Positions 4,547 to 18,333 of a stretch of 24,000 nt of DNA are shown in pieces (positions within the stretch are counted from its first letter, which is position 1; every line of letters starts with the position of its first letter). Below the pieces are notes generated by a model. It made no database searches. It was not told the origin of the DNA and saw nothing but the letters and a program-made list of their open reading frames with translations. Made by a program: the position numbers and the translations under genes. This stretch comes from an uncultured Methanolobus sp. (GTDB lineage: Archaea > Halobacteriota > Methanosarcinia > Methanosarcinales > Methanosarcinaceae), in assembly GCF_963674485.2 (NCBI RefSeq), contig NZ_CAXXKW010000002.1. One strand, written 5' to 3'.

Positions 4547-4570
4547 ACTTTTTCTAACTGACTTTTTCTA
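4547..4570 (+). terminator. Two oligo-T tracts downstream of 5S, likely the rRNA operon terminator
   Basis: The decamer actttttcta occurs twice (4547-4556 and 4561-4570), each containing T5. Oligo-T is the established archaeal termination signal. Confidence 0.5.
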
Positions 4571-5348
4571 CAACTAATCTATTTGGCTCTGTAGAAATCC
4601 TCATTTTAACGCAAAATATAACCTTGACATACCTGTCAAGGTTATGCACTAATATCTTGAATTTGACCTCTTTTAATTTATTCCAGTACCTTTTTGACCT
4701 TACCTCTTCTCCATGTTTCCTTTTCAGAACAGAGAACATCGTTTCAACCAAGTTTCTATTATGATACAATTCTCTGTCAAATTCCCTCTCCATTTTTCTT
4801 CGATATTTTCCTTTAATCCTCTTCCTTTTTCTTAGTCTCAAAGGAATCATAGCTATTGCATCCAATTGCTCTCTTGTTAGTGAATGTAGCTCTTCTGAGT
4901 CGTAACCTTTGTCCATCACATAGTACTTTGATTTACTAGTTTTATGGCATTGCCGCAGCAATGCCAATGCATGCTTTGCATCATGTACAGGTTTGCCTGA
5001 TATCTTGAAACCAGTAACAATGAACTTTGCAGTATCAACAGAGATACTTGTTTTCAGGAAAGATTTTCGTTTCTTTCCTGTTCTCCAGGAATAGTAATAG
5101 CTACAGTGACCACTAGTAAATCCACTTGAATCAATAGCAGTAACTTCTATTCTTTCGCCATATGAATAAAATAGTTTTAGTGTCTGATGCAATAATCCAT
5201 TGAAGTAGATAGATTTTAGTCTTCTAGTGAATTTGTGAAGTGTAGTAAAATGTGGAACTTGTTTTAGTCCAATCTTTGTTTTAACTTTGTCCATTAATTC
5301 AACAATTTCAACTATATCCCGGTAATCCTCATCAAGATATTCTTTCAA
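4554..5348 (-). CDS. DDE transposase (IS4/IS5 superfamily); catalytic part intact but the gene is probably frameshifted or decayed
   Basis: The 264-aa ORF has a candidate DDE triad ([27 protein letters not shown] with the Y-x2-R-x3-E-x6-K-like tail). The ORF-track start is TTG. The conserved N-terminal peptide ([13 protein letters not shown]) is in another frame upstream. The ORF also runs through the left IR and stops 31 nt outside the element. Confidence 0.75.
4577..4584. repeat. Target-site duplication, left copy (ATCTATTT)
   Basis: This 8-mer directly abuts the left IR. An identical 8-mer abuts the right IR at 5586-5593. Confidence 0.8.
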
Positions 5349-6316: not shown

Positions 6317-7770
6317 ATTTTAACATTCCTTTTATTTGCTCTTTTTCTTTTTATCCATGTTCCCGGCATGAACAGCAATATCAATGGTATTATCTCAATT
6401 CTTCCAAACAACATGTCAATGATCAGTACTAACTTAAGGATGACAGGCATCGCAGCATTTGTAACTCCTGCAGAAAGTCCGACAGTGCTCAAAGCACTTG
6501 ATACTTCGAAAACTGAACTGTTAGTGTTCACTCCATAGGTCATAAAAACAAAAGACGATACAACCAGTATCAAAGTGTAAAGCAGCATGAAAGTCACAAG
6601 ATTGTAGATTTCATCACTCTCTACAATGTGGTCCTCTATTTTTATTGGTGTAATAGTCTCTCTGGGAAGGAACAATCTCAATAATACATTATGTACTACT
6701 TTAAATAGCAAAAGGACCCTGAACACTTTAATTCCGCCTGCGGTGGATCCTACATTACCTCCTATCCACATCATAAATATCAACACAGCTTTGGAAGCAT
6801 CAGATAATATAGAAAGGTCTACTGTAGAAAAACCTGCTGTGCTAACTGCAGATATTACCTGGAAAAGACTTTCCTTGATTAAATTGTACTCCATATCTTC
6901 TTTTGCAAGAGTAAAAGCAAAAAGAATTGCTCCTATAGTTGTAAAGACCAGGAAAGCCCTAAGTTCCAGGTTTTTGAAGAATTTCTCTGGCTTCTTGAAA
7001 AGATAGGGATAAAGTACAAAACTAACCGCTCCCAGAAGACACGATATGCTAACAGCTGCAGGTATCATGCTTCCCTGATATGCACCTATGCTTTCAGCAC
7101 GTGTTGAAAATCCGCCGGTTGATACACAACAAAGGGCGTGGCATATAGAATCAAACAGGGACATACCACTCATTAAAAGCAATACTATGGAAACCAATGT
7201 TATAATTATATAGACTTTTCCAAGTGTACGGGTGGTGGCTATGACAGTTGGTTTGATCTTCATATCTCCATAGTTTGCCTTGTACATCCTGGATGCGGTA
7301 GTTCCCGGACTGATAAGGACAGAGAGCACCACAAGGATTATTCCTATTCCGCCCACCCACTGGCCCCAGGAACGTGCAAAAAGGAACACCGGTCCGACAT
7401 CTGCCGGTGCAACACTGAGACCTGTTGTCGTAACAGCTGACACACTTTCAAAATAAGCATCTATAAAAGGCATTCCTGTTGTAAGCGACATTGGGATTGC
7501 ACTAAGAAGTGCAGAGATCGGGAAAACCAGTGCAACAATGATGAGTGCTTCTTTTGTTTCAAGTTCATAGTCGGGAAGGGCTCGATAGACAATCGTTCCA
7601 ATAATAAAAACTGCTATAGCAGTACTTCCATAATCTATGGCAGCTTCTATATTTCCAAGGATCAACGCAGCAATTGTCGGAACAATCAGGACAAAAGTGA
7701 AAGCTATGAGATAATATCCCATGTACTTTGCCACAGCTTTTTGGTTAACAGGGGAGTGTAGCTCGTACAT
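6313..7770 (-). CDS. trkH: TrkH/KtrB-family potassium transporter membrane subunit
   Basis: 485 aa, polytopic. It carries four pore-loop signatures: TTTGLS, STGGFS, STAGFS and STVGLS. Confidence 0.92.
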   Translation of the reverse strand: MYELHSPVNQKAVAKYMGYYLIAFTFVLIVPTIAALILGNIEAAIDYGSTAIAVFIIGTIVYRALPDYELETKEALIIVALVFPISALLSAIPMSLTTGMPFIDAYFESVSAVTTTGLSVAPADVGPVFLFARSWGQWVGGIGIILVVLSVLISPGTTASRMYKANYGDMKIKPTVIATTRTLGKVYIIITLVSIVLLLMSGMSLFDSICHALCCVSTGGFSTRAESIGAYQGSMIPAAVSISCLLGAVSFVLYPYLFKKPEKFFKNLELRAFLVFTTIGAILFAFTLAKEDMEYNLIKESLFQVISAVSTAGFSTVDLSILSDASKAVLIFMMWIGGNVGSTAGGIKVFRVLLLFKVVHNVLLRLFLPRETITPIKIEDHIVESDEIYNLVTFMLLYTLILVVSSFVFMTYGVNTNSSVFEVSSALSTVGLSAGVTNAAMPVILKLVLIIDMLFGRIEIIPLILLFMPGTWIKRKRANKRNVKI

Positions 7771-7877
7771 ATATTATAATGATTCCTGTTACATTATAAA
7801 TTATATCATGAAATATTCCTTCTGTTCATCTTTCATTTGAGATTGTAACTTCTTAGTTTAGGTTCCTGAAAGGAAGC

Positions 7878-7887
7878 TTAAATATAT
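7878..7887 (+). promoter_or_regulatory. Candidate TATA box for tgtA
   Basis: ttaaatatat is preceded by a purine-rich BRE-like aggaag. Its centre is ~28 nt upstream of the ATG at 7910, implying a leaderless or very short-leader mRNA. Confidence 0.3.
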
Positions 7888-7909
7888 CTTAACTATCATC
7901 TAAAAGCTC

Positions 7910-9379
7910 ATGTCATCACAATTTGATATAATTCATAAGGATGCAGCAGGGCGTATTGGTAAGCTGACAACCCCGCATGGAGTGGTTGAAACTCCTACTG
8001 TAATGCCTGTCATTAATCCTAATATCCAGACAGTAAAACCCTCTGAGATGAGGGAATTCGGTGCTGAGATACTTATCACCAACTCATATATCATCTATCG
8101 TAAGGATGAATTAAGGGAAAAGGCACTGAAAGATGGTCTGCATGCATTACTCGATTTTGACGGTCCCCTTATGACAGACTCTGGTTCATTCCAGCTATCG
8201 GTCTATGGTGAAGTCGAGGTCACAAATGAAATGATAATCAATTTCCAGCAGAAGATAGGAACAGACATAGGCGTTCCTCTTGATATTCCTACACATCCTG
8301 ATGTGTCTTATGAAAAGGCAAAGGAAGATATGGATATCACAATACAGCGTCTTAAGGAAGCAAGGGAACTTGTGAAAGGTGACATGCTTCTGGCAGGTCC
8401 TGTGCAAGGTGCTATTTACAAGGATCTCCGTGAGGAGTGTGCCCGTGAGCTTTCAGAGGTAGGCTTTGATGTATATCCATTTGGAGCTGTGGTCCCATTG
8501 ATGGAGTCCTATCGCTATGCTGATCTTGTAGATGTAATTGCTTCCGCTAAAAAAGGCCTCGACCCCACAGCACCTGTCCATCTGTTTGGTGCAGGACACC
8601 CGATGATGTTCGCATTGGCAGTTGCTCTTGGATGTGATCTTTTCGATTCTGCTGCATATGCTCTTTATGCGAAGGACAGGCGTTACATCACTTCAAGAGG
8701 AACATATCATGTAGACCAGCTTAAGTATCTGCCATGCTCATGTCCTGTATGTCTGGCTCACACAGCGGAAGAATTGAAAAAGGCTCACAACTGCACCGAG
8801 CTTCTTGCCAGGCACAACCTCTATGTAACTTTTGAAGAGGTTCGTGAGGTCAAGCAGGCCATATGGGAAGGCAACCTCCTTGAGCTTGTGGAGCAGAGAT
8901 GCCGGGCTCATCCAAGGATGCTTGAAGCCCTTAAGCAGATGTATACATATTCTCCATGGCTGGAGCAGTGTGATCCATCATCCAAATCCACATTATTCTA
9001 TTGTGGTCCAGAGTCTGCCAGACGTCCGGAAGTCCTGCGTTTCAACAGGCAGCTTGAAAGGTTTACCATAGAAGGTTCGGCTTTGATACGGGCTTACCCG
9101 ACAAAGAGGGACAGTGATTATGACAACGTCCTGATATTCAAACCACCATTCGGGTCTTACCCGCAGGAACTTGCAGAGGTCTATCCGTTCAATGCTGAAG
9201 TTGTAAGGACTCCTGATTATGAATCCCTTGAGAGTGCTTATGAGAACACCATCAGGCTTGTGGAACTGAACCCTAAGGCAACATTCACTTTCCTGATGCA
9301 GGATAAATTAGAGCATCCTCTTGTAGAAAAACTTGAAAAGATGGATAACTTTACAGTTATCTCTTCCCAGAAAGAGTAA
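7910..9379 (+). CDS. tgtA: Archaeosine tRNA-guanine(15) transglycosylase (ArcTGT), short form without a PUA domain
   Basis: 489 aa. It has the TGT N-terminus (GRIGKLTTPHGVVETPTVMPV), a catalytic Asp context (LMTDSGSFQ) and the zinc site C-S-C-P-V-C...H (LPCSCPVCLAH). Confidence 0.9.
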   Translation: MSSQFDIIHKDAAGRIGKLTTPHGVVETPTVMPVINPNIQTVKPSEMREFGAEILITNSYIIYRKDELREKALKDGLHALLDFDGPLMTDSGSFQLSVYGEVEVTNEMIINFQQKIGTDIGVPLDIPTHPDVSYEKAKEDMDITIQRLKEARELVKGDMLLAGPVQGAIYKDLREECARELSEVGFDVYPFGAVVPLMESYRYADLVDVIASAKKGLDPTAPVHLFGAGHPMMFALAVALGCDLFDSAAYALYAKDRRYITSRGTYHVDQLKYLPCSCPVCLAHTAEELKKAHNCTELLARHNLYVTFEEVREVKQAIWEGNLLELVEQRCRAHPRMLEALKQMYTYSPWLEQCDPSSKSTLFYCGPESARRPEVLRFNRQLERFTIEGSALIRAYPTKRDSDYDNVLIFKPPFGSYPQELAEVYPFNAEVVRTPDYESLESAYENTIRLVELNPKATFTFLMQDKLEHPLVEKLEKMDNFTVISSQKE

Positions 9380-9537
9380 AGTCAATTCTCTATCAAAAAG
9401 GAAATAAAACCTGGTTATCATTTGATACTCTGGTTCTTATTGTCCAATTCTTTTTTATTTTATACCTGTCCGACTCATTTTTAGTCCGACCACCCTAATA
9501 CTAATATACGATACTGGAAATTAGGAGCTATAATCTA

Positions 9538-10497
9538 TTGGTGATGATATACTTGGTTTCGACTTCAGGCTCAAAAACACGGAATCCTTATCTTGAATTG
9601 TTAAGGCCGGAAATAGCGGATATGGATTTTGCCCTTCCTGCTGCAAGTGCTTTGCTGGCATCCTATCTTGCAATAGGGGCACTGCCAGATCCGATTCTTT
9701 TCATAATAGCGGTTATCGGGGGCTACGCAGCGATAACAAGTTCCTATGTATATAATGACTGTTGTGATGTCGATATAGATCAGATTAATCTTCCAAACCG
9801 CCCGTTGGTGTCTGATAAACTAAGTCGCGGACAGGCTATGAAGTATGCAGGGCTGTTATTTTTAATAGCAAGTGTGGCAGCTCTCTATCTGAATCCTGAA
9901 TCTTTTGTGGTATTGGTGATAGCAGTCGTCACTATAAGTATATACTCAAAACTTGCAAAAAGACTGACATTTCTTAGTTTCGTACCTGTGGGAATAGCTT
10001 ACGGGCTTGTACCTATAGGTATCTGGCTGGCATTCAATCCGGCAGGAATTCTCAGGAATCCCGATTATGGTTCCATACTTCCTCTGCCTGCCATATTCCT
10101 TGGCCTAATGATGTGTTTCACTGACTGGGGTTTCACATTGTCCGGTGTGGCAAGGGATGTGGAAGGCGACAGAGCCAGAGGCGCACCGACATTTCCGGTG
10201 ACATTCGGAGTTCCAGCAACCTCTAAGTTTGTAACTATCATGTGGGTTGTAGGTGTCATAGCCTCAATTGCCATCGGATTGACTGCAAAGATAGGGCCCA
10301 TATATTTTGCAGGTGCACTGCTTGCAGGTGGGTGGATGCTCACGCAGTCATTTGATTTTATAAAGAACCCGACACATGAACGTGGAGGAAGGCTATTTCT
10401 CCAGGGCTCCAGATACAGGGGTCTCATGTTTGGTTCTCTCATACTTGATGTAATACTTTGCATACTTGTTCCGGCATATTCCGGTATATTATGGTAA
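9538..10497 (+). CDS. UbiA-superfamily aromatic/lipid prenyltransferase; divergent, substrate unknown
   Basis: 319 aa and very hydrophobic. The first Asp-rich motif is NDCCDVDIDQINLPNRP, with a second acidic patch ARDVEGD. The start is uncertain (TTG 9538, GTG 9541 or ATG 9544); GGAG lies at 9525-9528. Confidence 0.85.
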   Translation: MVMIYLVSTSGSKTRNPYLELLRPEIADMDFALPAASALLASYLAIGALPDPILFIIAVIGGYAAITSSYVYNDCCDVDIDQINLPNRPLVSDKLSRGQAMKYAGLLFLIASVAALYLNPESFVVLVIAVVTISIYSKLAKRLTFLSFVPVGIAYGLVPIGIWLAFNPAGILRNPDYGSILPLPAIFLGLMMCFTDWGFTLSGVARDVEGDRARGAPTFPVTFGVPATSKFVTIMWVVGVIASIAIGLTAKIGPIYFAGALLAGGWMLTQSFDFIKNPTHERGGRLFLQGSRYRGLMFGSLILDVILCILVPAYSGILW

Positions 10498-10522
10498 TAA
10501 TTAGGTGTTTACGAGGTTCAAA

Positions 10523-11680
10523 ATGGATGCAGATATCATTGTAATAGGGGCTTCCCCGGCAGGGGTCATGGCAGCACGGAATGCATCGGCTAAAGGCTGC
10601 AAAGTAATCCTTCTCGATAAAAAAGAAGCTGCAGGTGTACCTACCCATCCGGCAAACACTTTTTTCAAAGGGATGTTTGATCGCACAGGTGAGGAAGTTG
10701 ACCAGAGTTATGTTATCAAGAATCTCAAAGGTGCCTACATAATAGCACCATCCGGCAGGAATGTCATTTTTGAGGGGGATGCTTATTTCCTTGACAGGAA
10801 GAAATTTGATGAGTTTTACATTCGCCATGCAAAAGAAGCAGGTGCAGACGTTCGCTTCGGAATCGAAGTTCTCAATGTTCTCCGGGTCGATGGCGGTTTC
10901 ACAGTAAGCACCTCAAAGGGCAAGATCAAGTGTAAGCTCGTTATTGTTTCAGATGGTATAAACTCCCGGATAGGTGCCCTTCTGGGTATGATACCTATCA
11001 AATACCCTCAGGACATTGCCTGGTCCCTTGAAGCAGAGATCGAAGCTGAAGGCATTGGTGAGCCCGATATGTTCGAATATTACGTGGGCAACCATGCACC
11101 AGGATGGAAATCCACTTATTCCCCATGTGGTGGTAATAGGGCAACACTTGGTATGTATGTCCGCAGGCATGGCAAGGATGTTTCTGATTTCTTCGATGCA
11201 TGGCTTGAAAAGTTCAAGACATTAAAGGGGCTTGATGAAGTAAAGATCATCAGTAAATCCGTAGGTGGTGATCCTATAGTTGCAATTCCAGGTGAGATAG
11301 TCGCCGACGGTGTAATGATAACGGGTGGTTCTGCTGCCCAGTCAGGTATAGGATACGGCATGCATGCAGGACAGATGTGTGGTGATGTTGCTGCCGATGC
11401 AATTGCAAAAGGTAATCTGTCAAAAAGCTTCCTTTCCGAATATAGGAAACGCTGGAATGCCGCATACAGGACTGAGTACTACCTTGGAAGGTTTGCCATG
11501 GAGACTCTCAGGAAAATGACTGACAAGGAGATCGATGAGCTTATGAAGGTCTTTGAAGGAGAGGACTTGAAGGTCCTTGGCGGAAGTCCTTTCAACCAGG
11601 CATTACAGGTATCAAAAATGATATTGAAAAATAACCCTTCATCCATACTTTCATACAGGGCTATCTTCAGGACGAAGTGA
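10523..11680 (+). CDS. Geranylgeranyl-reductase-family FAD-dependent oxidoreductase
   Basis: The N-terminus MDADIIVIGASPAGVMAA...VILLDKK is an FAD-binding GxGxxG fold, and the later GDAAG-like region is GGSAAQSG. I prefer ATG 10523 over the ORF-track GTG at 10505. It starts 26 nt after the UbiA stop. Confidence 0.85.
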   Translation: MDADIIVIGASPAGVMAARNASAKGCKVILLDKKEAAGVPTHPANTFFKGMFDRTGEEVDQSYVIKNLKGAYIIAPSGRNVIFEGDAYFLDRKKFDEFYIRHAKEAGADVRFGIEVLNVLRVDGGFTVSTSKGKIKCKLVIVSDGINSRIGALLGMIPIKYPQDIAWSLEAEIEAEGIGEPDMFEYYVGNHAPGWKSTYSPCGGNRATLGMYVRRHGKDVSDFFDAWLEKFKTLKGLDEVKIISKSVGGDPIVAIPGEIVADGVMITGGSAAQSGIGYGMHAGQMCGDVAADAIAKGNLSKSFLSEYRKRWNAAYRTEYYLGRFAMETLRKMTDKEIDELMKVFEGEDLKVLGGSPFNQALQVSKMILKNNPSSILSYRAIFRTK

Positions 11681-11683
11681 ACG

Positions 11684-12829
11684 ATGAAGAACAAGTATTA
11701 CTTTTACAGGAATCCATTTTTCAAGGTATATGCCCAGATAGAGGATGGCCGGGTAAAAATGAAGACTTCCGGTATCGCGTCCTCTATCATGGGTTCTTAC
11801 GTTTCGGAAATGATGGAGATATTTGAGGATACAAAACCTTCAAAAGTGGAAAAGAACCAGTTGATATATTCCACCTGGATGCCTCCTATACCCAGCAAGG
11901 CATTTGACAGGCTTGTTGCAAGCCAGATGAGTGCGATGAGGGGTAAATTCGTTCCGGAACAGATCACAATTTCAATTACCGAAGAGTGCCCTAACAGGTG
12001 TATACACTGTGCTCTTCCTGATACCAAGAACAAAGCAAGGCTCAGTCCCGATGCTGTGAAAAGTGTCATCGACCAAACCCAGAAGATGGGTACGACCCTC
12101 ATTATATTTGATGGGGGGGAACCTCTGTTATATGATGGCCTTGAGGATCTCATAAGTTATGTCGATAAATCCCGTGCGATTCCGGGTCTTTTCACATCCG
12201 GTGTGGGCATGACTCCGCAACGTGCATTGAGCCTGAAGGACGCGGGTCTCTCCATGCTCAGTGTGAGTCTTGACAGCGCAAATGAAGAAGGTCACGATTA
12301 CATGCGTGGAAGGCCGGGCGTGTTTAACGATGCTGTCAATGCCATAAAGAATGGTCTGGATGCAGGCTTGCTGGTTGGCATTTACGTTGTTCTTTCACCA
12401 AGGAATGTTGATGAGCTTGATGAATTCTATGAGCTTGCAAAGGAACTCGGTGTGCATGAACTTTCTTTCTATGAAATAGTCCCAACCGGAAGATGGCAGG
12501 GTCATGAAAAAGAAGTTCTCTCAGCCGAAGGCCTGAAAAAGTTCGATGATTTCGTAGAACGCAAATCTCATGCTCAAGGCCCACGTGTTTTCCCGATTCC
12601 TCAGATCTTAAGGAAAATGGGGTGTTTTGCAGGCAGAAAATGGCTTCATGTAACTCCTGAAGGCGATGTACTTCCATGTGCATGCATGCCAAAACCATAT
12701 GGTAACATCCATGAGGAAAGCCTGGCTTCCATATGGAAAAAGATATACAAAGATCCTGTTTTCACTTCAGGTCCCTGTCTTATGAGGGATTCTGAATTTA
12801 GGACGGTCCATCTCGGACTGGAAAAATAG
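11684..12829 (+). CDS. Radical SAM protein with a SPASM/twitch-like C-terminal Cys motif
   Basis: 381 aa. It has CPNRCIHC (CxxxCxxC), a GGEPLL SAM-binding motif, and a C-terminal GCFAGRKWLHVTPEGDVLPCACMP. The ATG is 3 nt after the preceding stop. Confidence 0.85.
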   Translation: MKNKYYFYRNPFFKVYAQIEDGRVKMKTSGIASSIMGSYVSEMMEIFEDTKPSKVEKNQLIYSTWMPPIPSKAFDRLVASQMSAMRGKFVPEQITISITEECPNRCIHCALPDTKNKARLSPDAVKSVIDQTQKMGTTLIIFDGGEPLLYDGLEDLISYVDKSRAIPGLFTSGVGMTPQRALSLKDAGLSMLSVSLDSANEEGHDYMRGRPGVFNDAVNAIKNGLDAGLLVGIYVVLSPRNVDELDEFYELAKELGVHELSFYEIVPTGRWQGHEKEVLSAEGLKKFDDFVERKSHAQGPRVFPIPQILRKMGCFAGRKWLHVTPEGDVLPCACMPKPYGNIHEESLASIWKKIYKDPVFTSGPCLMRDSEFRTVHLGLEK

Positions 12830-12897: not shown

Positions 12898-13806
12898 TTA
12901 TTTCAGGAATCCTGATCTCTGGAGAGCCATCAGGTTCTCCATAGTAAGCTTTCCACCGGACTTGAACTTGTCAAAGATGTCTTCTGCATCCTTGCGTGCG
13001 TCTGCCCTTGCAGCTTCCTTCTTACCGTCGAAATCTCCTTTCTTCATCTTGCGGAGTTCCTTGTCAATGTCACGGATCTCTTTCTGGGCTGCAATGAAGA
13101 GTTTGTGCTGTTCGTCAGCTTTTTCCTGGAATTGAACGAATTCTTTGTGAGCAGCATCAGATTCTGCGCGAATCTTGTCGGCCTCTTTGAAGGTGGTGAT
13201 CATCTTGTCATGATATTCCTGTGCCTTCTGTGCATACTCTGAAAGTGTAGCGTGATGATTTGAAGCTTCGTCCCTGATCTCCTGTGCTTCGTCCAGCAGT
13301 TTCTTGAGTTCTTCATTTCCTTCAAGTTGCTGTTTCTTTACCACATATTGCTTCTGGAGTTCAGTGATCTTGTTGACCAATTCTCTTTCCTTGTTGGTTG
13401 TGAGGACTTCTGTCTGCTGTGCAAACTCAAGTCTGTCGATCTCCTTGCGTATATCTTTGATAGAAGGGCCACCAAGGTTATTCTCATTACGGATCTGGTC
13501 TATCTTGGCAAAAACGTCGTTCGCCTTGTTGTTGATCTCATCACGGAGTACCTTGTATTCCTTAACCTTCTCGTTGTTCTCGTCACGGAGTACCTTGTAT
13601 TCCTGTGCCTCGTTGATAAGATCCTTAGTCTTCTTGTTCAGCTCATTGCGCTTTGATGCAAGTGTGCTTGCCTCAGCATTAAGCTCGTTACGTTTCTCTT
13701 TGTATTCTTCTGACTGGGTCTTAAGCTCAGTCTTCTTGTCGTTAAGTTCTTTTATCATTTCTTTATTATCCTCCCGGTCCAGCAAAAGAGCTGGCATTTC
13801 ATGCAT
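12898..13806 (-). CDS. Archaeal coiled-coil protein (K/E-rich, COG1340-like), function unknown
   Basis: Long heptad-like K/E/Q/L-rich sequence. I place the start at MHEMPALL (ATG 13806 or 13797) because the longer ORF-track start (13872) lies inside serB. It has an internal 42-nt duplication. Confidence 0.7.
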   Translation of the reverse strand: MHEMPALLLDREDNKEMIKELNDKKTELKTQSEEYKEKRNELNAEASTLASKRNELNKKTKDLINEAQEYKVLRDENNEKVKEYKVLRDEINNKANDVFAKIDQIRNENNLGGPSIKDIRKEIDRLEFAQQTEVLTTNKERELVNKITELQKQYVVKKQQLEGNEELKKLLDEAQEIRDEASNHHATLSEYAQKAQEYHDKMITTFKEADKIRAESDAAHKEFVQFQEKADEQHKLFIAAQKEIRDIDKELRKMKKGDFDGKKEAARADARKDAEDIFDKFKSGGKLTMENLMALQRSGFLK

Positions 13807-14497
13807 CTCTAATGCACGATACTTGGCCTTTTTCCGATTCCAACAACTGGATAACCGGTATAACTGCTTCAAGGTTCTTTTCTGTTATGACAATATCAGC
13901 ATGCTCATGGAGAATCGGTTTGGAATTGAATGCTATGGCATATCTTGCCCTTTTAAAAATACATATGTCATTGGCACCGTCACCAACCACAATACATTCT
14001 TCAGGTTCTAATCCATATTTTCGGGATATTTCTTCAAGAACATGTTCTTTAGAACACTGTCCTGTAAGAGGGCCCTTTACCTCTCCTGTCAGACATCCGT
14101 TGTCTACCAGTAGTTCATTTGAAACCACATGATCCATTCCAAGTGTTTCACCAACACGCTCTGCAGCTATGGTAAATCCACCGGAGATCATTGCGGTTTT
14201 ATAACCTCGGGATTTCAGGTATTTGACAAGTTCTTTCGCACCGGGCATAAAAGGCATTTTGTCAAGCGCAACATGGGCATCATCGAGTGTAAGTCCTTTT
14301 AGCAGTCTCACCCTCTCAACAAGTGCATTCGAAAAATCAAGTTCTCCACGCATTGCTTTTTCTGTAATAGAGGCGACTTCGTCTCCCACTCCGGCGGCAT
14401 GTGCAAGCTCGTCAATGGTTTCAGCATCAATAAGGGTGCTATCCATATCAAAAACTACTAACTTTATCCTATCAGAATTATTGCTGGTACGACTCAC
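13799..14497 (-). CDS. serB: Phosphoserine phosphatase (HAD superfamily)
   Basis: 232 aa. HAD motifs are FDMDSTLI (I), MISGGF (II) and GDGANDI (III). SerB-type cap region is ITEKAMRGELDFSNAL. Confidence 0.88.
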   Translation of the reverse strand: MSRTSNNSDRIKLVVFDMDSTLIDAETIDELAHAAGVGDEVASITEKAMRGELDFSNALVERVRLLKGLTLDDAHVALDKMPFMPGAKELVKYLKSRGYKTAMISGGFTIAAERVGETLGMDHVVSNELLVDNGCLTGEVKGPLTGQCSKEHVLEEISRKYGLEPEECIVVGDGANDICIFKRARYAIAFNSKPILHEHADIVITEKNLEAVIPVIQLLESEKGQVSCIRDA

Positions 14498-14680
14498 TTC
14501 ATCAAACCTGGAATTTCAATCCCGCATTGAAACAGTATTTAAGTGCCGAGATTGATTTGAAATACGCTACATTGCTTTTAAGGCTTTCGGATAGAATGCA
14601 GTGTTCATATCAGTTCTATTTTTTTGTGCGAGCATGCTATAAAATGCGATATGATGGAGGGTTCTTTATAATGTCAATAA

Positions 14681-14688
14681 TTATATAA
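14681..14688 (+). promoter_or_regulatory. Candidate TATA box for the stressosome-like operon
   Basis: ttatataa lies ~45 nt upstream of ATG 14732. A Shine-Dalgarno-like gaggt is at 14719-14723, 8 nt before the ATG. Confidence 0.3.
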
Positions 14689-14731
14689 TAATGAAATGTA
14701 TATTTACTATGGATTTTAGAGGTATTATATT

Positions 14732-15526
14732 ATGTCAAAAAATGAAACTCTTTCTGTAACGGATAATTTTTCTAATAAAAATATACTTGATCAACTTCCA
14801 TGTATGGTGATGGCAGTTGATCGAGATTTCAATATCCTTTCCCTTAATGCTGTTGGATCTAGGTGGCTTGGGGAGGATTTTGAGAACATTGAAGGTAAGA
14901 AATGTTATGACCTGGTGCGTTCCCCTCATTGTAATACCAACAATTGCCGTGTCAAACAAGCCATGGAAAACGGCAAGGTATATGTCTGGAGAAATGAGAT
15001 CACAGCTGCTGGCAAAACCTTCCCTGTGGAGTATACTGCGGCTCCATTGAAGGATAAAGAAGGTAACATTATAGGTGGAGTTGAATATGTCATTGACATA
15101 AGCGACAGGGTAAAGATCGAAGCAGAGGTCCGGGCTCACAGCCGTACTATAATGGAACTTTCAACACCTGTTATAAAACTCTGGGATGGCATCGTGATCC
15201 TTCCTCTTGTAGGGGTGATCGATACAATGCGTGCCCAGCAGATCATTGAGAACCTATTATCTTCCATTGTTGAAAATGAGGCAGCTGTGGCAATACTTGA
15301 CGTGACCGGTGTTCCAATGATTGACACAAGCGTTGCACAGCATATCCTGAAGACTGTAAGTGCCGGCAAAATGCTTGGTGCGGAAGTTATTATTACAGGT
15401 TTCAGTCCAAATGTTGCCCAGACAATTGTGACTCTGGGAGTTGACATGAGTGGTATAATTACTACCGGTTCATTGCGTGACGGTGTCTCAAAGGCTTTTG
15501 CTCTTGTAGGCAAAAAACTGGTATGA
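14732..15526 (+). CDS. rsbR: RsbR-like stressosome sensor: N-terminal Cys-rich PAS domain plus C-terminal STAS domain
   Basis: 264 aa. Residues ~15-125 have the PAS pattern (LPCMVMAVDRDFNILSLNAVG...GGVEYVIDISDR). Residues ~140-260 are an RsbR-type STAS domain (ELSTPVIKLWDGIVILPLVG, LDVTGVPMIDTSVAQHI, ITGFSPNVAQTIVTLGV). Thr199 and Thr231 sit at the expected phospho-acceptor positions. Confidence 0.85.
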   Translation: MSKNETLSVTDNFSNKNILDQLPCMVMAVDRDFNILSLNAVGSRWLGEDFENIEGKKCYDLVRSPHCNTNNCRVKQAMENGKVYVWRNEITAAGKTFPVEYTAAPLKDKEGNIIGGVEYVIDISDRVKIEAEVRAHSRTIMELSTPVIKLWDGIVILPLVGVIDTMRAQQIIENLLSSIVENEAAVAILDVTGVPMIDTSVAQHILKTVSAGKMLGAEVIITGFSPNVAQTIVTLGVDMSGIITTGSLRDGVSKAFALVGKKLV

Positions 15527-15542
15527 ACTCAAAGGTGATCCT

Positions 15543-15908
15543 ATGGAAATACCAATGCTCAAACTGAAAAATATTCTGCTCACTTCTATACAGAGTGATA
15601 TGACGGACGATGATGCTCTGAAATATCAATCGGATGTTGTTTCAACCCTGGAAAAAAGTAGTTTAAAAGGTCTCATCATTGACATAACAGCAATGGATAT
15701 TGTGGATACTTTCATGGCCCGTGTAATCAACGAGACGGCAAGAATGGCACGCCTTATGGGTACCCGGGTTGTTCTGTGTGGTATGCAGCCAATGGTTGCA
15801 CTGACACTGGTTGAAATGGGGAGGGAATTAATTGGCGTTGACACTGCCCTTAATCTTGACAAAGGCTTTGACAAGCTTCTTGAAATGATTGAAGAAGGAG
15901 TTGAGTAA
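15543..15908 (+). CDS. rsbS: RsbS-like single-STAS stressosome scaffold protein
   Basis: 121 aa. IPMLKLKNILLTSIQ...IIDITAMDIVDTFMARV...VVLCGMQPMVALTLVEMG follows the RsbS pattern. Thr56 (VDTF) occupies the position of the RsbS phospho-serine. Confidence 0.85.
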   Translation: MEIPMLKLKNILLTSIQSDMTDDDALKYQSDVVSTLEKSSLKGLIIDITAMDIVDTFMARVINETARMARLMGTRVVLCGMQPMVALTLVEMGRELIGVDTALNLDKGFDKLLEMIEEGVE

Positions 15909-16311
15909 CATAGGCGAGAAAAGCATAGATCTCAAAATTGAAGATGATATTCTCATAGCCAGGCAGGTTGCCAGAAAAGAAATGGCAGAAATTGGCTTTG
16001 GTTCTGCAGACCAGACTCGCATGGCTACTGCAATCTCTGAGCTGACGCGCAATGTGATCAAATATGCAGGGGAAGGTGTATGCCACATAATTACGGAAGT
16101 TTCATCGGCAGAAATTAAGGTGAAAGTAGAGATCGAAGACTATGGTCCGGGGATTGCCGATCTGAATAAGGCCATGGAAGACGGATATACAACAGGTGGA
16201 GGTTTGGGTGCAGGTCTTCCCGGTGCAAAGAGACTTGTTAATGATTTTTCCATAGAATCACGTCCTGGATTAACAAAAATAAATTTAGAGATGTGTCGTC
16301 CTAATGTCTGA
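15889..16311 (+). CDS. rsbT: RsbT-like GHKL serine/threonine protein kinase (switch kinase)
   Basis: 140 aa. Signatures are ISELTRNVIKYAGEG (N-box), DYGPGI (G1) and DGYTTGGGLGAGLPGAKRLVNDF (G2 / RsbT signature). The start is TTG at 15889 (alternative TTG at 15901) and overlaps the rsbS end. Confidence 0.85.
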   Translation: MKKELSNIGEKSIDLKIEDDILIARQVARKEMAEIGFGSADQTRMATAISELTRNVIKYAGEGVCHIITEVSSAEIKVKVEIEDYGPGIADLNKAMEDGYTTGGGLGAGLPGAKRLVNDFSIESRPGLTKINLEMCRPNV

Positions 16312-16747
16312 AATTCTTGAATATACGTCTCCTGAAGATGGACTGAAGTTGATGGTAGAGGTAACGAATTTGTCCCATGTTGCAAATGTTCAGACCACTG
16401 TTCGCTCAATTGCAAAGAAACTAGGATTCTCAGAACTTGCTTCACATAAAGCCGCGACTTCTGCATCAGAGCTTGCTTCTAATCTGGTACATCATGCCAA
16501 TAACGGTGGCTCCATAATTATCAGGGAAATCAGGAAAAGCGGATACGTAGGAATTGAGATAGTATCTGATGATTCGGGTCCGGGTATAAAGGATGTAGAT
16601 CTGGCTTTGCAGGATGGGTATTCCACAGGTAACGGCCTTGGTTCTGGGCTGCCTGCAGTTAAAAGGATTATGGACGAATTAGAAATTACAGTAACAGGCG
16701 ATTCAAAGACCTGTATTAAAACCCGGTTGTGGTATTTATGCGAGTAG
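16304..16747 (+). CDS. Second RsbT/RsbW-like GHKL serine kinase paralog
   Basis: 147 aa. Signatures are ASELASNLVHHANNG, DDSGPGI and DGYSTGNGLGSGLPAVKRIMDEL. The ATG overlaps the upstream stop (ATGTCTGA, 8 nt). Confidence 0.8.
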   Translation: MSEILEYTSPEDGLKLMVEVTNLSHVANVQTTVRSIAKKLGFSELASHKAATSASELASNLVHHANNGGSIIIREIRKSGYVGIEIVSDDSGPGIKDVDLALQDGYSTGNGLGSGLPAVKRIMDELEITVTGDSKTCIKTRLWYLCE

Positions 16748-17310
16748 CAACAGAATCACGTTCTTTTAATGGTGATGTACATTGCGGGGATCAGTGTGAC
16801 TGGTGGCTTGAAGATGATACATTGACCCTTTGTATGATTGATGGGCTCGGCCATGGCAAACCTGCCGAAGAAGCAGCAAAAGCTGCTATTGATTATGTTT
16901 CCTGTCATCTGCAGGAGTCTCTTGGCACATTGTTCTCAGGATGTGACAAAGCTATAAGGCAAACAAGAGGTGTAGCCATGAGCATCGCCAGAATCGATCA
17001 GAATGAAGGCAGTCTCGAGTATGGGGGTATTGGGAATACTCGCACAATGATATGTGGTGAAAAATCATCTAATCTTCCTTCCAGCTGGGGAATTGTTGGG
17101 GGTGGATTCAGACATTTGCATATTGAGAGGGCAAACATTTCTCAGGATGACCTTCTGATAATGTGGACTGATGGAATTCCTGAAAACATCACGATTTCGT
17201 CGTATGATTCCTACATGCTACAGGATGAACAACAGCTGGCAAAAAAAATACTGGATGATCATGGGCGTATGACTGATGATGCAACCATATTGGTGTATTT
17301 GAAGGGGTGA
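16738..17310 (+). CDS. rsbX: RsbX-like PP2C/SpoIIE-family serine phosphatase
   Basis: PP2C metal-binding contexts are present: GDVHCGDQC, MIDGLGHG, MWTDGI and TDDATILV. The size (~190 aa) fits RsbX. I prefer ATG 16738, which overlaps the upstream stop by 10 nt, over the GTG at 16729. Confidence 0.85.
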   Translation: MRVATESRSFNGDVHCGDQCDWWLEDDTLTLCMIDGLGHGKPAEEAAKAAIDYVSCHLQESLGTLFSGCDKAIRQTRGVAMSIARIDQNEGSLEYGGIGNTRTMICGEKSSNLPSSWGIVGGGFRHLHIERANISQDDLLIMWTDGIPENITISSYDSYMLQDEQQLAKKILDDHGRMTDDATILVYLKG

Positions 17311-17394
17311 TGCATTATTACAGAAACAGATTTTAAAGAAAGGTATTATCAGATTCTGAAAGGTTACGTTACTACCCGTGAAGAGAAATACCTG

Positions 17395-18333
17395 ATGAGG
17401 TCTGAAGACCTGGGCTATGAGCTTGTCAGGTTTAATGTCCCTCCTGAAGATATTGTTGAACTACATGAGGTGGCGATTTCCAGGCTGGCTACTGACCTCC
17501 CTGCCAAAAGTATGATGGAATCTGTAGGCTTCCTTTCCACACCACTTGTAGAACTCATGATGGCATATGGTCTTGCGTTCAGGCAATGGATAGAGGATCT
17601 GGAAAAAAGCAAACAAGAACTCATTATGTATGCTCAGGAGTTACAACATTCCAATGAGCTGAAAGAGCTTTTTGCCGACATTATGCGCCATGATCTCCTG
17701 AATCCTGCTTCTCTGGTCAGCGGCTTTGTTTCTATTTTGCTTGAATGGGAGGAAGATGAAAAGAAAAAGTCCCTGCTTACAAATATAGACAAGAGCAACC
17801 GAAATCTTGTATACATTATAGAGAAAGCAGCAGAATTTGCCAAACTGGATTCTGTGGAAGAGCTGGACTTTTCTACCCATGACCTTGATTTAATTCTGCG
17901 GGATATTGTAGATACTTTCATGCCCAAGTTCGACGAAAATGAAATAACAGTGGGCATGAGTACTGACGGATCACACCTGGCATTGGTAAATCCTCTAATT
18001 GAGCAGGTTTTCATTAACCTCATTTCCAATGCCATAAAATATGGTCCAAAAGGTGGTCATGTGGAGATATTCATGTCGGATGCCGGGGATGAATGGCAGG
18101 TTAATGTGAAAGACAATGGCAGTGGCATACCTGAACAGGATAGGGAAATGATCTTCACCCGTTTCTCACGATTGGACAAGGTTAACAAAGGCAGTATCAA
18201 AGGTACAGGTCTTGGTCTTGCAATTGTGCACAAGATAGTTACTCTTCATAATGGTAGTGTTGGCGTGGATAGTAATTATCCTGAAACCGGTAGTACTTTC
18301 TGGGTCCGGTTTAATAAGGCCCCGACAATTTAG
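17395..18333 (+). CDS. Sensor histidine kinase with an N-terminal RsbU-N-like (RsbT-docking) domain; the true start is probably upstream of the first ATG
   Basis: H-box is FADIMRHDLLNP, N-box LISNAIKYGPKGG, G1 VKDNGSGIP, G2 GTGLGLAIV. The N-terminal ~85 aa (…VPPEDIVELHEVAISRL…MMAYGLAFRQ) resembles the RsbU N-terminal helical domain. That similarity continues into 17311-17394, upstream of the first ATG. Confidence 0.85.
   Translation: MRSEDLGYELVRFNVPPEDIVELHEVAISRLATDLPAKSMMESVGFLSTPLVELMMAYGLAFRQWIEDLEKSKQELIMYAQELQHSNELKELFADIMRHDLLNPASLVSGFVSILLEWEEDEKKKSLLTNIDKSNRNLVYIIEKAAEFAKLDSVEELDFSTHDLDLILRDIVDTFMPKFDENEITVGMSTDGSHLALVNPLIEQVFINLISNAIKYGPKGGHVEIFMSDAGDEWQVNVKDNGSGIPEQDREMIFTRFSRLDKVNKGSIKGTGLGLAIVHKIVTLHNGSVGVDSNYPETGSTFWVRFNKAPTI

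Follow-up and report, generated by a model that had tools for sequence, protein, structure and literature searches.

We analyzed a window of 24,000 nt (the whole stretch of DNA, numbered from its first letter) from an uncultured Methanolobus sp. (contig NZ_CAXXKW010000002.1 of RefSeq assembly GCF_963674485.2). Positions 14732 to 18333 hold six co-oriented open reading frames (ORFs) on the + strand. They encode, in order, an RsbR-like protein with a PAS and a STAS domain (R), an RsbS-like protein (S), two GHKL kinases (K1 and K2), an RsbX-like PP2C phosphatase, and a histidine kinase with an RsbU_N domain. Gene content, homology, catalytic and phospho-acceptor residues, distribution, and phylogeny together indicate that this is probably a functional stressosome-type operon, acquired from bacteria by an ancestor of the Methanosarcinaceae and inherited vertically in Methanolobus. 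The features of the locus are as follows.

14556..14731, + strand: AT-rich intergenic region 5' of the operon, a putative promoter and 5' untranslated region (UTR), read directly from the sequence
14732..15526, + strand: rsbR-like gene, 264 aa; Pfam PAS_4 and STAS, with a match to Listeria RsbR
14903..14947, + strand: Cys58-x8-His66-Cys67-x4-Cys72 motif in the PAS domain of R, from conservation in homologues
15543..15908, + strand: rsbS-like gene, 121 aa; single STAS domain (E = 8.6e-11), with a match to Listeria RsbS
15889..16311, + strand: K1, RsbT orthologue, GHKL Ser/Thr kinase; HATPase_c at 42.9 bits and HATPase_c_2 at 38.8 bits
16304..16747, + strand: K2, second GHKL kinase, 147 aa; HATPase_c_2 at 42 bits
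16729..17310, + strand: rsbX-like single-domain PP2C phosphatase; SpoIIE/PP2C at 28.5 bits (cutoff, 25)
17302..17319, + strand: phosphatase/kinase junction with the Shine-Dalgarno sequence AAGGGGTGATGC, the phosphatase TGA, and the in-frame codons ATT ATT
17317..18333, + strand: output histidine kinase, 338 aa; Pfam RsbU_N, HisKA, and HATPase_c

With the likely true starts, the first two genes lie 16 nt apart, the next three junctions overlap by 8, 8, and 10 nt, and the last two genes are 6 nt apart; these short distances make the arrangement operon-like. The preliminary description of this stretch had proposed six co-oriented genes with short or overlapping junctions and had assigned them to a PAS+STAS RsbR-like protein, an RsbS-like protein with Thr56 at the position of Ser59, an RsbT-like GHKL kinase, a second paralogous kinase, an RsbX-like phosphatase, and a HisKA/HATPase histidine kinase with an RsbU_N-like N terminus. 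The ORF calls agree with this layout, and profile hidden Markov model searches upheld all of the domain assignments.

The PAS domain of R spans residues 19 to 127 (nt 14786 to 15112; PAS_4, 60.8 bits, E = 1.8e-16), and its STAS domain spans residues 150 to 238 (nt 15179 to 15445; 54 bits, E = 1.5e-14; both Pfam). A sequence search of solved structures matched the STAS half to Listeria RsbR (6qcm/7b0u) with an E value of 1.7e-32. S matched Listeria RsbS (6qcm_A) over residues 1 to 115 (E = 9.6e-29), as well as Bacillus subtilis RsbS (6jhk; E = 6.8e-28) and Moorella MtS (2vy9; E = 6.9e-25). R and S score 103 to 116 bits to Listeria RsbR and RsbS, versus 22 to 24 bits to TIGR00377, the anti-sigma antagonist superfamily, and are thus far closer to solved stressosome proteins than to generic antagonists. 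NCBIfam gives no family-level name for the module proteins; the best match of R is YtvA_fam, at 90 bits with a cutoff of 250.

Two threonines of R, T165 (VIDT) and T199 (MIDT), are spaced by 34 residues, and at a constant offset of +10 they match T175 and T209 of Listeria RsbR; they are the equivalents of T171 and T205 of B. subtilis. In an alignment of seven RsbR sequences, T199 is invariant, and the T165 position is Thr in six of the seven (Ser in Desulfobaculum). Of the two acceptors first proposed for R, T199 therefore stands, whereas T231 (AQT) does not, as no known phospho-site is located there and the second canonical site is T165. In S, Thr56 aligns with S56 of Listeria RsbS and S59 of B. 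subtilis RsbS. Both STAS domains are similar over their full length to proteins whose structures were solved inside stressosome particles, and by analogy R and S would form a pseudo-icosahedral complex (about 1.8 MDa) in which the kinase is sequestered.

K1 probably starts at TTG 15901 (136 aa, as in orthologue annotations) rather than at TTG 15889 (140 aa). It keeps the RsbT invariants R19, R23, G32, D35, R38, R48, D78, and D92, and in the first neighbor-joining tree it is located in the region of the canonical Bacillales and Listeria RsbT. The K1 sequences of modules with RsbU_N kinases form a clade with 93% bootstrap. K2 is 38% identical to K1. The N-box, DxGPGI, and GLGxGLP motifs are intact in both proteins, and all ATP-binding residues are kept. 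However, R19, G32, D35, R38, R48, and Y53 (B. subtilis numbering), which are invariant in K1 and RsbT, are absent from K2. K2 also lacks the GxxDQxR signature that is invariant in RsbT and K1, although it retains R23 and D92. R19 of RsbT is among the residues shown to be important for binding to RsbU (PMC12143880). The solved-structure search returned no close relative of K1 or K2, and the best NCBIfam kinase match is the SpoIIAB family, at 39 bits versus a cutoff of 135. Exact-sequence look-ups for K2 and for protein P0117 gave no match.

In every two-kinase locus, the first gene scores far higher to K1 and the second scores higher to K2; single kinases score about equally to both. The first neighbor-joining tree had suggested that K2 is a well-supported clade, but its bootstrap is only 8%, so we define K2 by gene position, score asymmetry, and signature residues. 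The position of K2 is conserved in bacterial modules. In one locus from Bryobacteraceae (L037, 2607 to 3656), K2 and the PP2C phosphatase form one ORF with Pfam HATPase_c_2 and SpoIIE domains. In another, from Anaerolineales (L069, 968 to 1990), a single 340-aa ORF with HATPase_c_2 contains the tblastn match of the phosphatase (1424 to 1972); SpoIIE was not detected in this ORF by Pfam at an E value of 0.001. These fusion ORFs, of about 345 aa, come from different phyla, and they suggest that K2 is functionally tied to the phosphatase. Because L037 and L069 group together in the first neighbor-joining tree, they may represent a single fusion event seen in two phyla. We found no description of a second RsbT-like kinase in stressosome operons in the literature covered, which excludes the RsbRST survey of Pane-Farre et al. 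(2005).

The phosphatase probably starts at ATG 16738 (190 aa, from orthologue annotations) rather than at GTG 16729 (193 aa). Among solved structures, it is closest to Moorella MtX (3zt9), which it matches over the full length with an E value of 4.5e-21, and to B. subtilis RsbX (3w40; E = 7.3e-11). The metal-site motifs DGLGHG, TDG, and DDA are present.

The last gene of the module encodes the output histidine kinase. Read from ATT 17317, its RsbU_N domain (residues 8 to 87; nt 17338 to 17577) covers model positions 1 to 75 of 75 at 48.4 bits (cutoff, 25.5). Read from ATG 17395, the start given in the preliminary description, it reaches 27.5 bits and covers model positions 23 to 75 only, so that start was replaced. 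The N terminus matches the N-terminal domain of B. subtilis RsbU (2j6z) with an E value of 1.8e-4. HisKA follows at residues 116 to 179 (nt 17662 to 17853; 31.3 bits) and HATPase_c at residues 227 to 334 (nt 17995 to 18318; 99 bits), with the H-box histidine H125 and the N, G1, F, and G2 boxes (NAIKY at 238, DNGSGI at 266, FTRF at 280, and GTGLGL at 296) of a class I histidine kinase. An AlphaFold2 monomer model built from a 13-sequence alignment has a mean predicted local distance difference test score (pLDDT) of 77, with values of 60 to 73 across residues 111 to 140. In this model, four N-terminal helices are followed by one continuous helix (residues 74 to 144) that joins RsbU_N helix 4, the linker, and the H125-bearing DHp helix 1, and then by the second DHp helix and the ATP-binding domain. 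The top Foldseek matches of the model are HK853, ZraS, and GacS.

The experimentally defined RsbT-RsbU interface consists of E24, Y28, I74, I78, and R91 of RsbU and R19, R23, N24, and D92 of RsbT (PMC12143880). In our own alignment, the histidine kinase keeps E24 and has I74 as V and I78 as M. K1 keeps R19, R23, and D92. Other positions are changed, so that the B. subtilis interface is conserved only in part.

The start of the histidine kinase lies at its junction with the phosphatase. The Shine-Dalgarno sequence AAGGGGTGATGC matches the complement of the 16S 3' end GGATCACCTCCT at 10 of 12 positions. For the first 26 codons of the kinase (window 17302 to 17394), an ATG, GTG, or TTG start is lacking. 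The 84 nt upstream of ATG 17395 are stop-free and encode RsbU_N helix 1 ("...TETDFKERYYQILKGYVTTREEKYL"), and this sequence matches the N termini of orthologues and of the kinase in L004, a 62-kb metagenomic contig. An identical NCBI protein (P0057, 338 aa) is annotated from ATT 17317. We aligned the junction DNA of the window with that of L088, L089, L090, L091, and L005. In Methanolobus sediminis and UBA118, the kinase ATG overlaps the phosphatase stop (GTGATG). In the window, Methanolobus mangrovi, and L090/L091, one extra nucleotide puts this ancestral ATG out of frame. The insertion places the kinase in the phosphatase frame behind the TGA (TGATGA in L090/L091), where only ATT codons are available.

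The stretch of 24 codons that precedes ATG 17395 differs between the window and M. mangrovi by five synonymous changes and one nonsynonymous change, which indicates that the region is translated. Initiation or termination-reinitiation at ATT is the likeliest way in which the kinase is made, and the layout of the junction suggests that its translation is probably coupled to that of the phosphatase by reinitiation. Since the phosphatase and the kinase share a frame, we also considered read-through of the TGA to give a phosphatase-kinase fusion; it is unlikely, as L090/L091 have two consecutive in-frame stops (TGATGA). A sequencing error behind the out-of-frame ATG is ruled out by the arrangement common to M. 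mangrovi and L090/L091.

The two parts of the kinase have different relatives. Residues 1 to 95 are 58% identical to the module kinase of Methanosarcina and 40 to 49% identical to those of L087, L007, and L008. The core (residues 96 to 338; window 17602 to 18333) is 30 to 31% identical to the Methanosarcina and L087 module-kinase cores and 26 to 36% identical to bacterial HisKA-type counterparts (L008, L007, L028, L073, and L011), and it has no significant match to the HisKA_2-type core of L004 (20% identity; E = 0.49). In contrast, it is 46 to 52% identical (206 to 248 bits) to PAS/GAF histidine kinases of Methanococcoides, Methanosalsum, and Methanolobus, including two paralogues from the same genome; the ordinary kinases in this comparison were P0069, P0078, P0117, and P0175. 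The higher identity to these proteins than to other module kinases (about 30%) suggests that the core was exchanged for a resident Methanosarcinaceae type, and it indicates a domain swap behind RsbU_N in the Methanolobus lineage with a junction near residues 88 to 100. The RsbU_N-HisKA architecture is not specific to archaea, as it occurs in L028, L011, and L073; only the origin of the core differs. The resident kinase paralogue that we checked is also an orphan with no adjacent regulator.

The PAS domain of R may provide the input. Its Cys58-x8-His66-Cys67-x4-Cys72 (Cys3His) motif is kept in RsbR homologues of Methanolobus, Methanosarcina (with His replaced by Cys), a Pseudomonadota metagenome-assembled genome (MAG), and Desulfobaculum. 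A PAS search of 1.84 billion representatives gave 17,272 relatives at an E value of 0.001 or better, and the pattern GxKC[YFH]xLFxTxHCxTxxC is present in 80 of the best 150 of these. Relatives with the motif often have two to four tandem PAS copies per protein. The motif is a candidate metal, Fe-S, or thiol-redox site, which would be a reasonable guess for the input. We found no description of a Cys3His PAS motif in the literature. The weak Protein Data Bank matches of this domain are LOV domains, with C58 aligned with the LOV adduct cysteine. However, the flavin-binding GxNCRFLQ motif is replaced by GKKCYDLVRSPHCNTNNC and the YtvA_fam score lies below its cutoff, which rules out a LOV/YtvA photoreceptor.

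The module lies in an archaeal neighborhood, as had been stated from the first reading. The window opens with an archaeal rRNA operon (16S-tRNAAla-23S-tRNACys-5S). Before the module are genes for a DDE transposase, TrkA/TrkH, archaeosine TGT, UbiA, a geranylgeranyl-reductase-like flavoprotein, a radical SAM/SPASM protein, DUF7121, and a HAD/SerB-like protein. After it are genes for MTD, PK_C, PAC2, DUF473, DUF169, endonuclease V, and SepRS. Directly 5' of the operon are TATA-like stretches and, about 8 nt ahead of the rsbR-like ATG, the motif GAGGT, which resembles a Shine-Dalgarno sequence. A domain search found no Response_reg or receiver domain in the 16 flanking ORFs of the window, which agrees with the earlier statement that no response regulator is encoded there. 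No RsbV/RsbW pair or alternative sigma factor was found within the window by domain search.

The order HAD - module - MTD - PK_C is common to M. sediminis, M. mangrovi, and a Methanolobus contig from a JGI metagenome. The GC content of the module (0.42 to 0.44) and its GC content at third codon positions (0.37 to 0.42) are inside the range of the flanks, and codon usage correlates between module and flanks with an r of 0.745, compared with 0.81 between the left and right flanks. The composition was thus rightly described as like that of the neighbors, and it suggests that the module is old enough to have adapted to its host. Together with the synteny across Methanolobus assemblies, it also rules out a chimeric contig or contamination. 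Substitutions between Methanolobus species are mostly synonymous.

The transposase ORF (DDE_Tnp_1, 76 bits; GC content, 0.34) occupies window positions 4554 to 5348 on the - strand, directly downstream of the 5S rRNA gene, and is probably an insertion sequence. The ORF calls for DUF7121 (12898 to 13872) and the HAD/SerB-like protein (13799 to 14497), both on the - strand, overlap by 74 nt. The start of DUF7121 is probably overextended, as it has 324 aa here and 286 aa in annotated orthologues.

The distribution of the module was surveyed with one genome per species by alignment of K2 relatives followed by tblastn with eight module pieces. The survey is a sample and not a census, and the taxa named are those among the matches listed. 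The layout R-S-K1-K2-X, usually followed by an RsbU_N kinase, occurs in a Pseudomonadota MAG, Ardenticatenales, Geobacteraceae, Azospirillaceae, Halochromatium, Rubrivivax, Gemmatimonadota, Bryobacteraceae, and Chloroflexota and Anaerolineales. L004 carries PAS-STAS, STAS, two kinases, SpoIIE, and an RsbU_N kinase, followed by a receiver-HTH regulator. In other bacterial counterparts, the kinase either precedes a stand-alone receiver (L011, L028, and L073) or is itself a hybrid kinase (L007, L008, and L037). The completeness of the architecture, which had seemed unusual at first, is therefore not unusual, because the six-gene layout is widespread in bacteria. Bacillales and Listeria have the classical single-kinase layout (RST-RsbU...RsbX).

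Methanosarcina spp. have R-S-T-X-RsbU_N-kinase with a single kinase at a different chromosomal site. In one Methanosarcina sp. (L085, 8946 to 9146), a 200-nt noncoding gap separates kinase and phosphatase at the position that K2 has in Methanolobus; tblastn found no K2 remnant in this gap. On a 1.1-Mb contig (L087; ENA ERZ21878363), a minimal R-S-T set whose R has 148 aa and no PAS domain is tandemly duplicated (7549 to 12449) ahead of R-S-K1-K2-X-RsbU_N-kinase, and restriction and helicase genes adjoin.

We built a neighbor-joining tree from concatenated R_STAS, S, K1, and X sequences (Kimura distance; 300 bootstraps; Bacillales outgroup). Methanolobus, Methanosarcina, and L087 group with 100% bootstrap, and within this group L087 joins Methanosarcina with 97%. 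This archaeal clade joins L004, L006, L007, and L008 with 95%, and all of these modules sit inside the bacterial two-kinase radiation (100%). Such nesting points to an old acquisition from bacteria and so supports horizontal transfer, which the preliminary description had left to phylogeny. The simplest reading of the tree is one old transfer from bacteria to the Methanosarcinaceae, followed by vertical descent and by loss of K2 in Methanosarcina. The 2.7-kb contig L006 (QMVM01000329.1), binned as "Methanosarcinales archaeon B131_G9", carries R-S-K1-K2-X. It groups with bacterial modules (85%), whereas a grouping with the remaining archaeal modules has 1%; L006 thus represents either a separate transfer or a misbinned short contig.

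From homology with the B. subtilis, Listeria, Vibrio, and Moorella systems and from the RsbT-RsbU model of Baral et al., we infer a model that covers assembly, the phosphorylation assignments, the sign of kinase regulation, and the roles of the signal, K2, and a downstream partner. R, with its PAS and STAS domains, and S, with STAS alone, would assemble into a STAS core that sequesters K1. The PAS domain would sense a signal, possibly redox or metal, via its Cys3His site. K1 would then phosphorylate S at T56 and R at T165 and T199 and would be released. Free K1 would bind the dimeric RsbU_N domain and the linker, which would stiffen the helix that runs into the DHp domain and alter autophosphorylation at H125. 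The resident-type kinase core would hand the phosphate to a partner encoded elsewhere in the genome. In this way it would replace the sigma-B branch, which is not available because archaea, to our knowledge, have no sigma factors. The PP2C phosphatase would dephosphorylate R and S and reset the system. K2 would be active as an accessory kinase, would differ from K1 in its partner surface, and would be functionally tied to the phosphatase; most likely, it adds a second loop of phosphorylation and dephosphorylation at the STAS core that serves adaptation or feedback. A kinase partner switch onto a histidine kinase had been suggested from the first reading, and it is supported by precedent. Histidine kinases with RsbU_N are encoded after stressosome genes in some Proteobacteria, where the docking of RsbT onto the RsbU_N dimer and linker has been proposed to activate them (PMC9237108, PMC12143880). 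As Methanosarcina has an RsbU_N kinase without K2, K1 appears sufficient as the partner of RsbU_N.

Several observations weigh against a functional, bacterially derived stressosome at this locus or against parts of the model. No response regulator is encoded in the window or beside the resident kinase paralogue. The kinase has only a noncanonical ATT start, which makes its expression level uncertain. In our alignment, Y28 of RsbU is M and R91 is probably E in the histidine kinase, and N24 of RsbT is K in K1. The idea of a PAS cofactor derives from a sequence motif; a single-sequence AlphaFold2 model of R, with pLDDT < 50 in the PAS domain, was discarded. The 8% bootstrap of K2 as a single clade was obtained on 136 columns.

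A STAS protein, a GHKL kinase, and a PP2C phosphatase are also the generic toolkit of partner switching, and the best NCBIfam kinase match is SpoIIAB, even though its score is far below the cutoff. The module could thus be a simple RsbV/RsbW or SpoIIAA/AB switch in which the STAS proteins are soluble antagonists of both kinases and no supramolecular stressosome forms. We regard this as unlikely, because R and S score several times higher to solved stressosome proteins than to the antagonist model, because the R-S-T order, the two RsbR-type threonines, and the RsbX-type phosphatase are specific to stressosomes, and because there is no sigma factor or other obvious target for an anti-factor. It is very improbable that the module is decaying, that it is an inert remnant of horizontal transfer, or that it is a chimera of the assembly. 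The 1-nt insertion that puts the ancestral kinase ATG out of frame and the lack of a cognate response regulator nearby would fit decay. However, location and gene order are constant in several Methanolobus genomes, the catalytic motifs are all intact, the composition is host-like, and the excess of synonymous changes before ATG 17395 indicates translation. Furthermore, the ATT follows a strong Shine-Dalgarno sequence, and three lineages have this arrangement in common.

A different division of labor between the two kinases was also considered, in which K2 activates the RsbU_N kinase and K1 only phosphorylates the STAS core, or the two kinases carry separate signals. Among the matches listed, K2 is found only in modules with a histidine-kinase output, mostly of the RsbU_N type, and it retains R23 and D92 of the RsbT-RsbU interface. 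On the other hand, the RsbU_N effectors of Methanosarcina and Bacillales occur with a single kinase of the K1/RsbT type, K2 lacks R19 and the GxxDQxR signature, and in L037 and L069 it is fused to the phosphatase and not to the kinase. This arrangement is therefore also improbable. The more detailed proposal is a two-kinase stressosome working in the Methanosarcinaceae, with the Cys3His PAS domain as a redox, metal, or O2 sensor, K1 acting on an RsbU_N adaptor regrafted onto a resident archaeal-lineage kinase core, and K2 and the phosphatase forming an adaptation loop. It is put forward only tentatively. If true, it would be the first stressosome route into sigma-free archaeal gene regulation, and it would show in nature the swapping of RsbU_N among effector domains that has been proposed.

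Experimental characterization of stressosomes is limited to bacteria, in which sigma-B is the classic output. The locus described here is a compact, conserved, six-gene case for stressosome signaling without sigma factors in a methanogen lineage. For Methanosarcina, genetic tools are available. The parts of the module that lend themselves to tests are the three threonines proposed as acceptors, a pair of kinases that differ in partner surface, the RsbU_N domain on a swapped core, and a candidate metal or redox site. Since K2 is widespread in bacterial modules, an understanding of its role would extend the general stressosome model. The core swap also provides natural evidence for the idea that coiled-coil-linked signaling domains are an "exchangeable toolkit" (PMC12143880). 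The preliminary description had referred to a passing mention of rsbRST-like genes in Methanomicrobia, and this was confirmed, as rsbRSTX modules have been noted "even in some archaeal species" (PMC9237108; also PMC8942246). It had also named no characterized archaeal stressosome, and our literature search found no study of an archaeal module; such modules are only mentioned in passing (PMC9237108, PMC8942246), and the search returned no relevant expression data for Methanolobus or Methanosarcina.

Among known systems, YtvA, the blue-light LOV-STAS paralogue of RsbR, resembles R in having a PAS-type sensor followed by STAS and in the alignment of Cys58 with the LOV adduct cysteine. However, R has the Cys3His motif instead of the flavin-binding NCRFLQ and scores 90 bits to the YtvA family, whose cutoff is 250. 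The MtR-MtS-MtT-MtX-MtG system of Moorella thermoacetica (2vy9, 3zt9) includes the closest solved relative of the phosphatase (MtX) and a match to S (MtS), and its output effector also carries RsbU_N. It differs in its GGDEF cyclase output, single kinase, and bacterial host. Vibrio vulnificus and Vibrio brasiliensis (PMC9237108, PMC4976288) likewise have a minimal RSTX module followed by two-component genes without a sigma factor, and a redox or O2-type input is plausible in both cases. In contrast to the Methanolobus locus, they have a heme globin RsbR sensor, a kinase D1 without RsbU_N, an adjacent regulator D2, and only one kinase.

A similar layout is that of the proteobacterial RsbU_N-kinase operons (Heinz et al. 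2022, PMC9237108; Baral et al. 2025, PMC12143880, Fig. 5E), in which RsbU_N, linker, and kinase also follow rsbX. Here, a second kinase that is unmentioned in the literature covered lies between rsbT and rsbX, the kinase has a core of the resident Methanosarcinaceae type and not that of its bacterial counterparts, and no receiver or regulator follows. With the stressosomes of B. subtilis and Listeria (6qcm, 7b0u, 6jhk), the module shares an RsbR with both threonines, the RsbS site, RsbT, RsbX, and the RsbU_N docking domain. However, RsbU_N is located on a histidine kinase here and on a PP2C phosphatase there, the RsbV/RsbW/sigma-B branch is absent and the phosphatase directly follows the kinases, an extra kinase (K2) is present, the host is an archaeon, and the sensor is a Cys3His PAS domain instead of a nonheme globin. 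What is variant in Methanolobus is thus the second kinase, the archaeal host without sigma factors or an adjacent regulator, the swapped kinase core, and the conserved noncanonical start of the histidine kinase.

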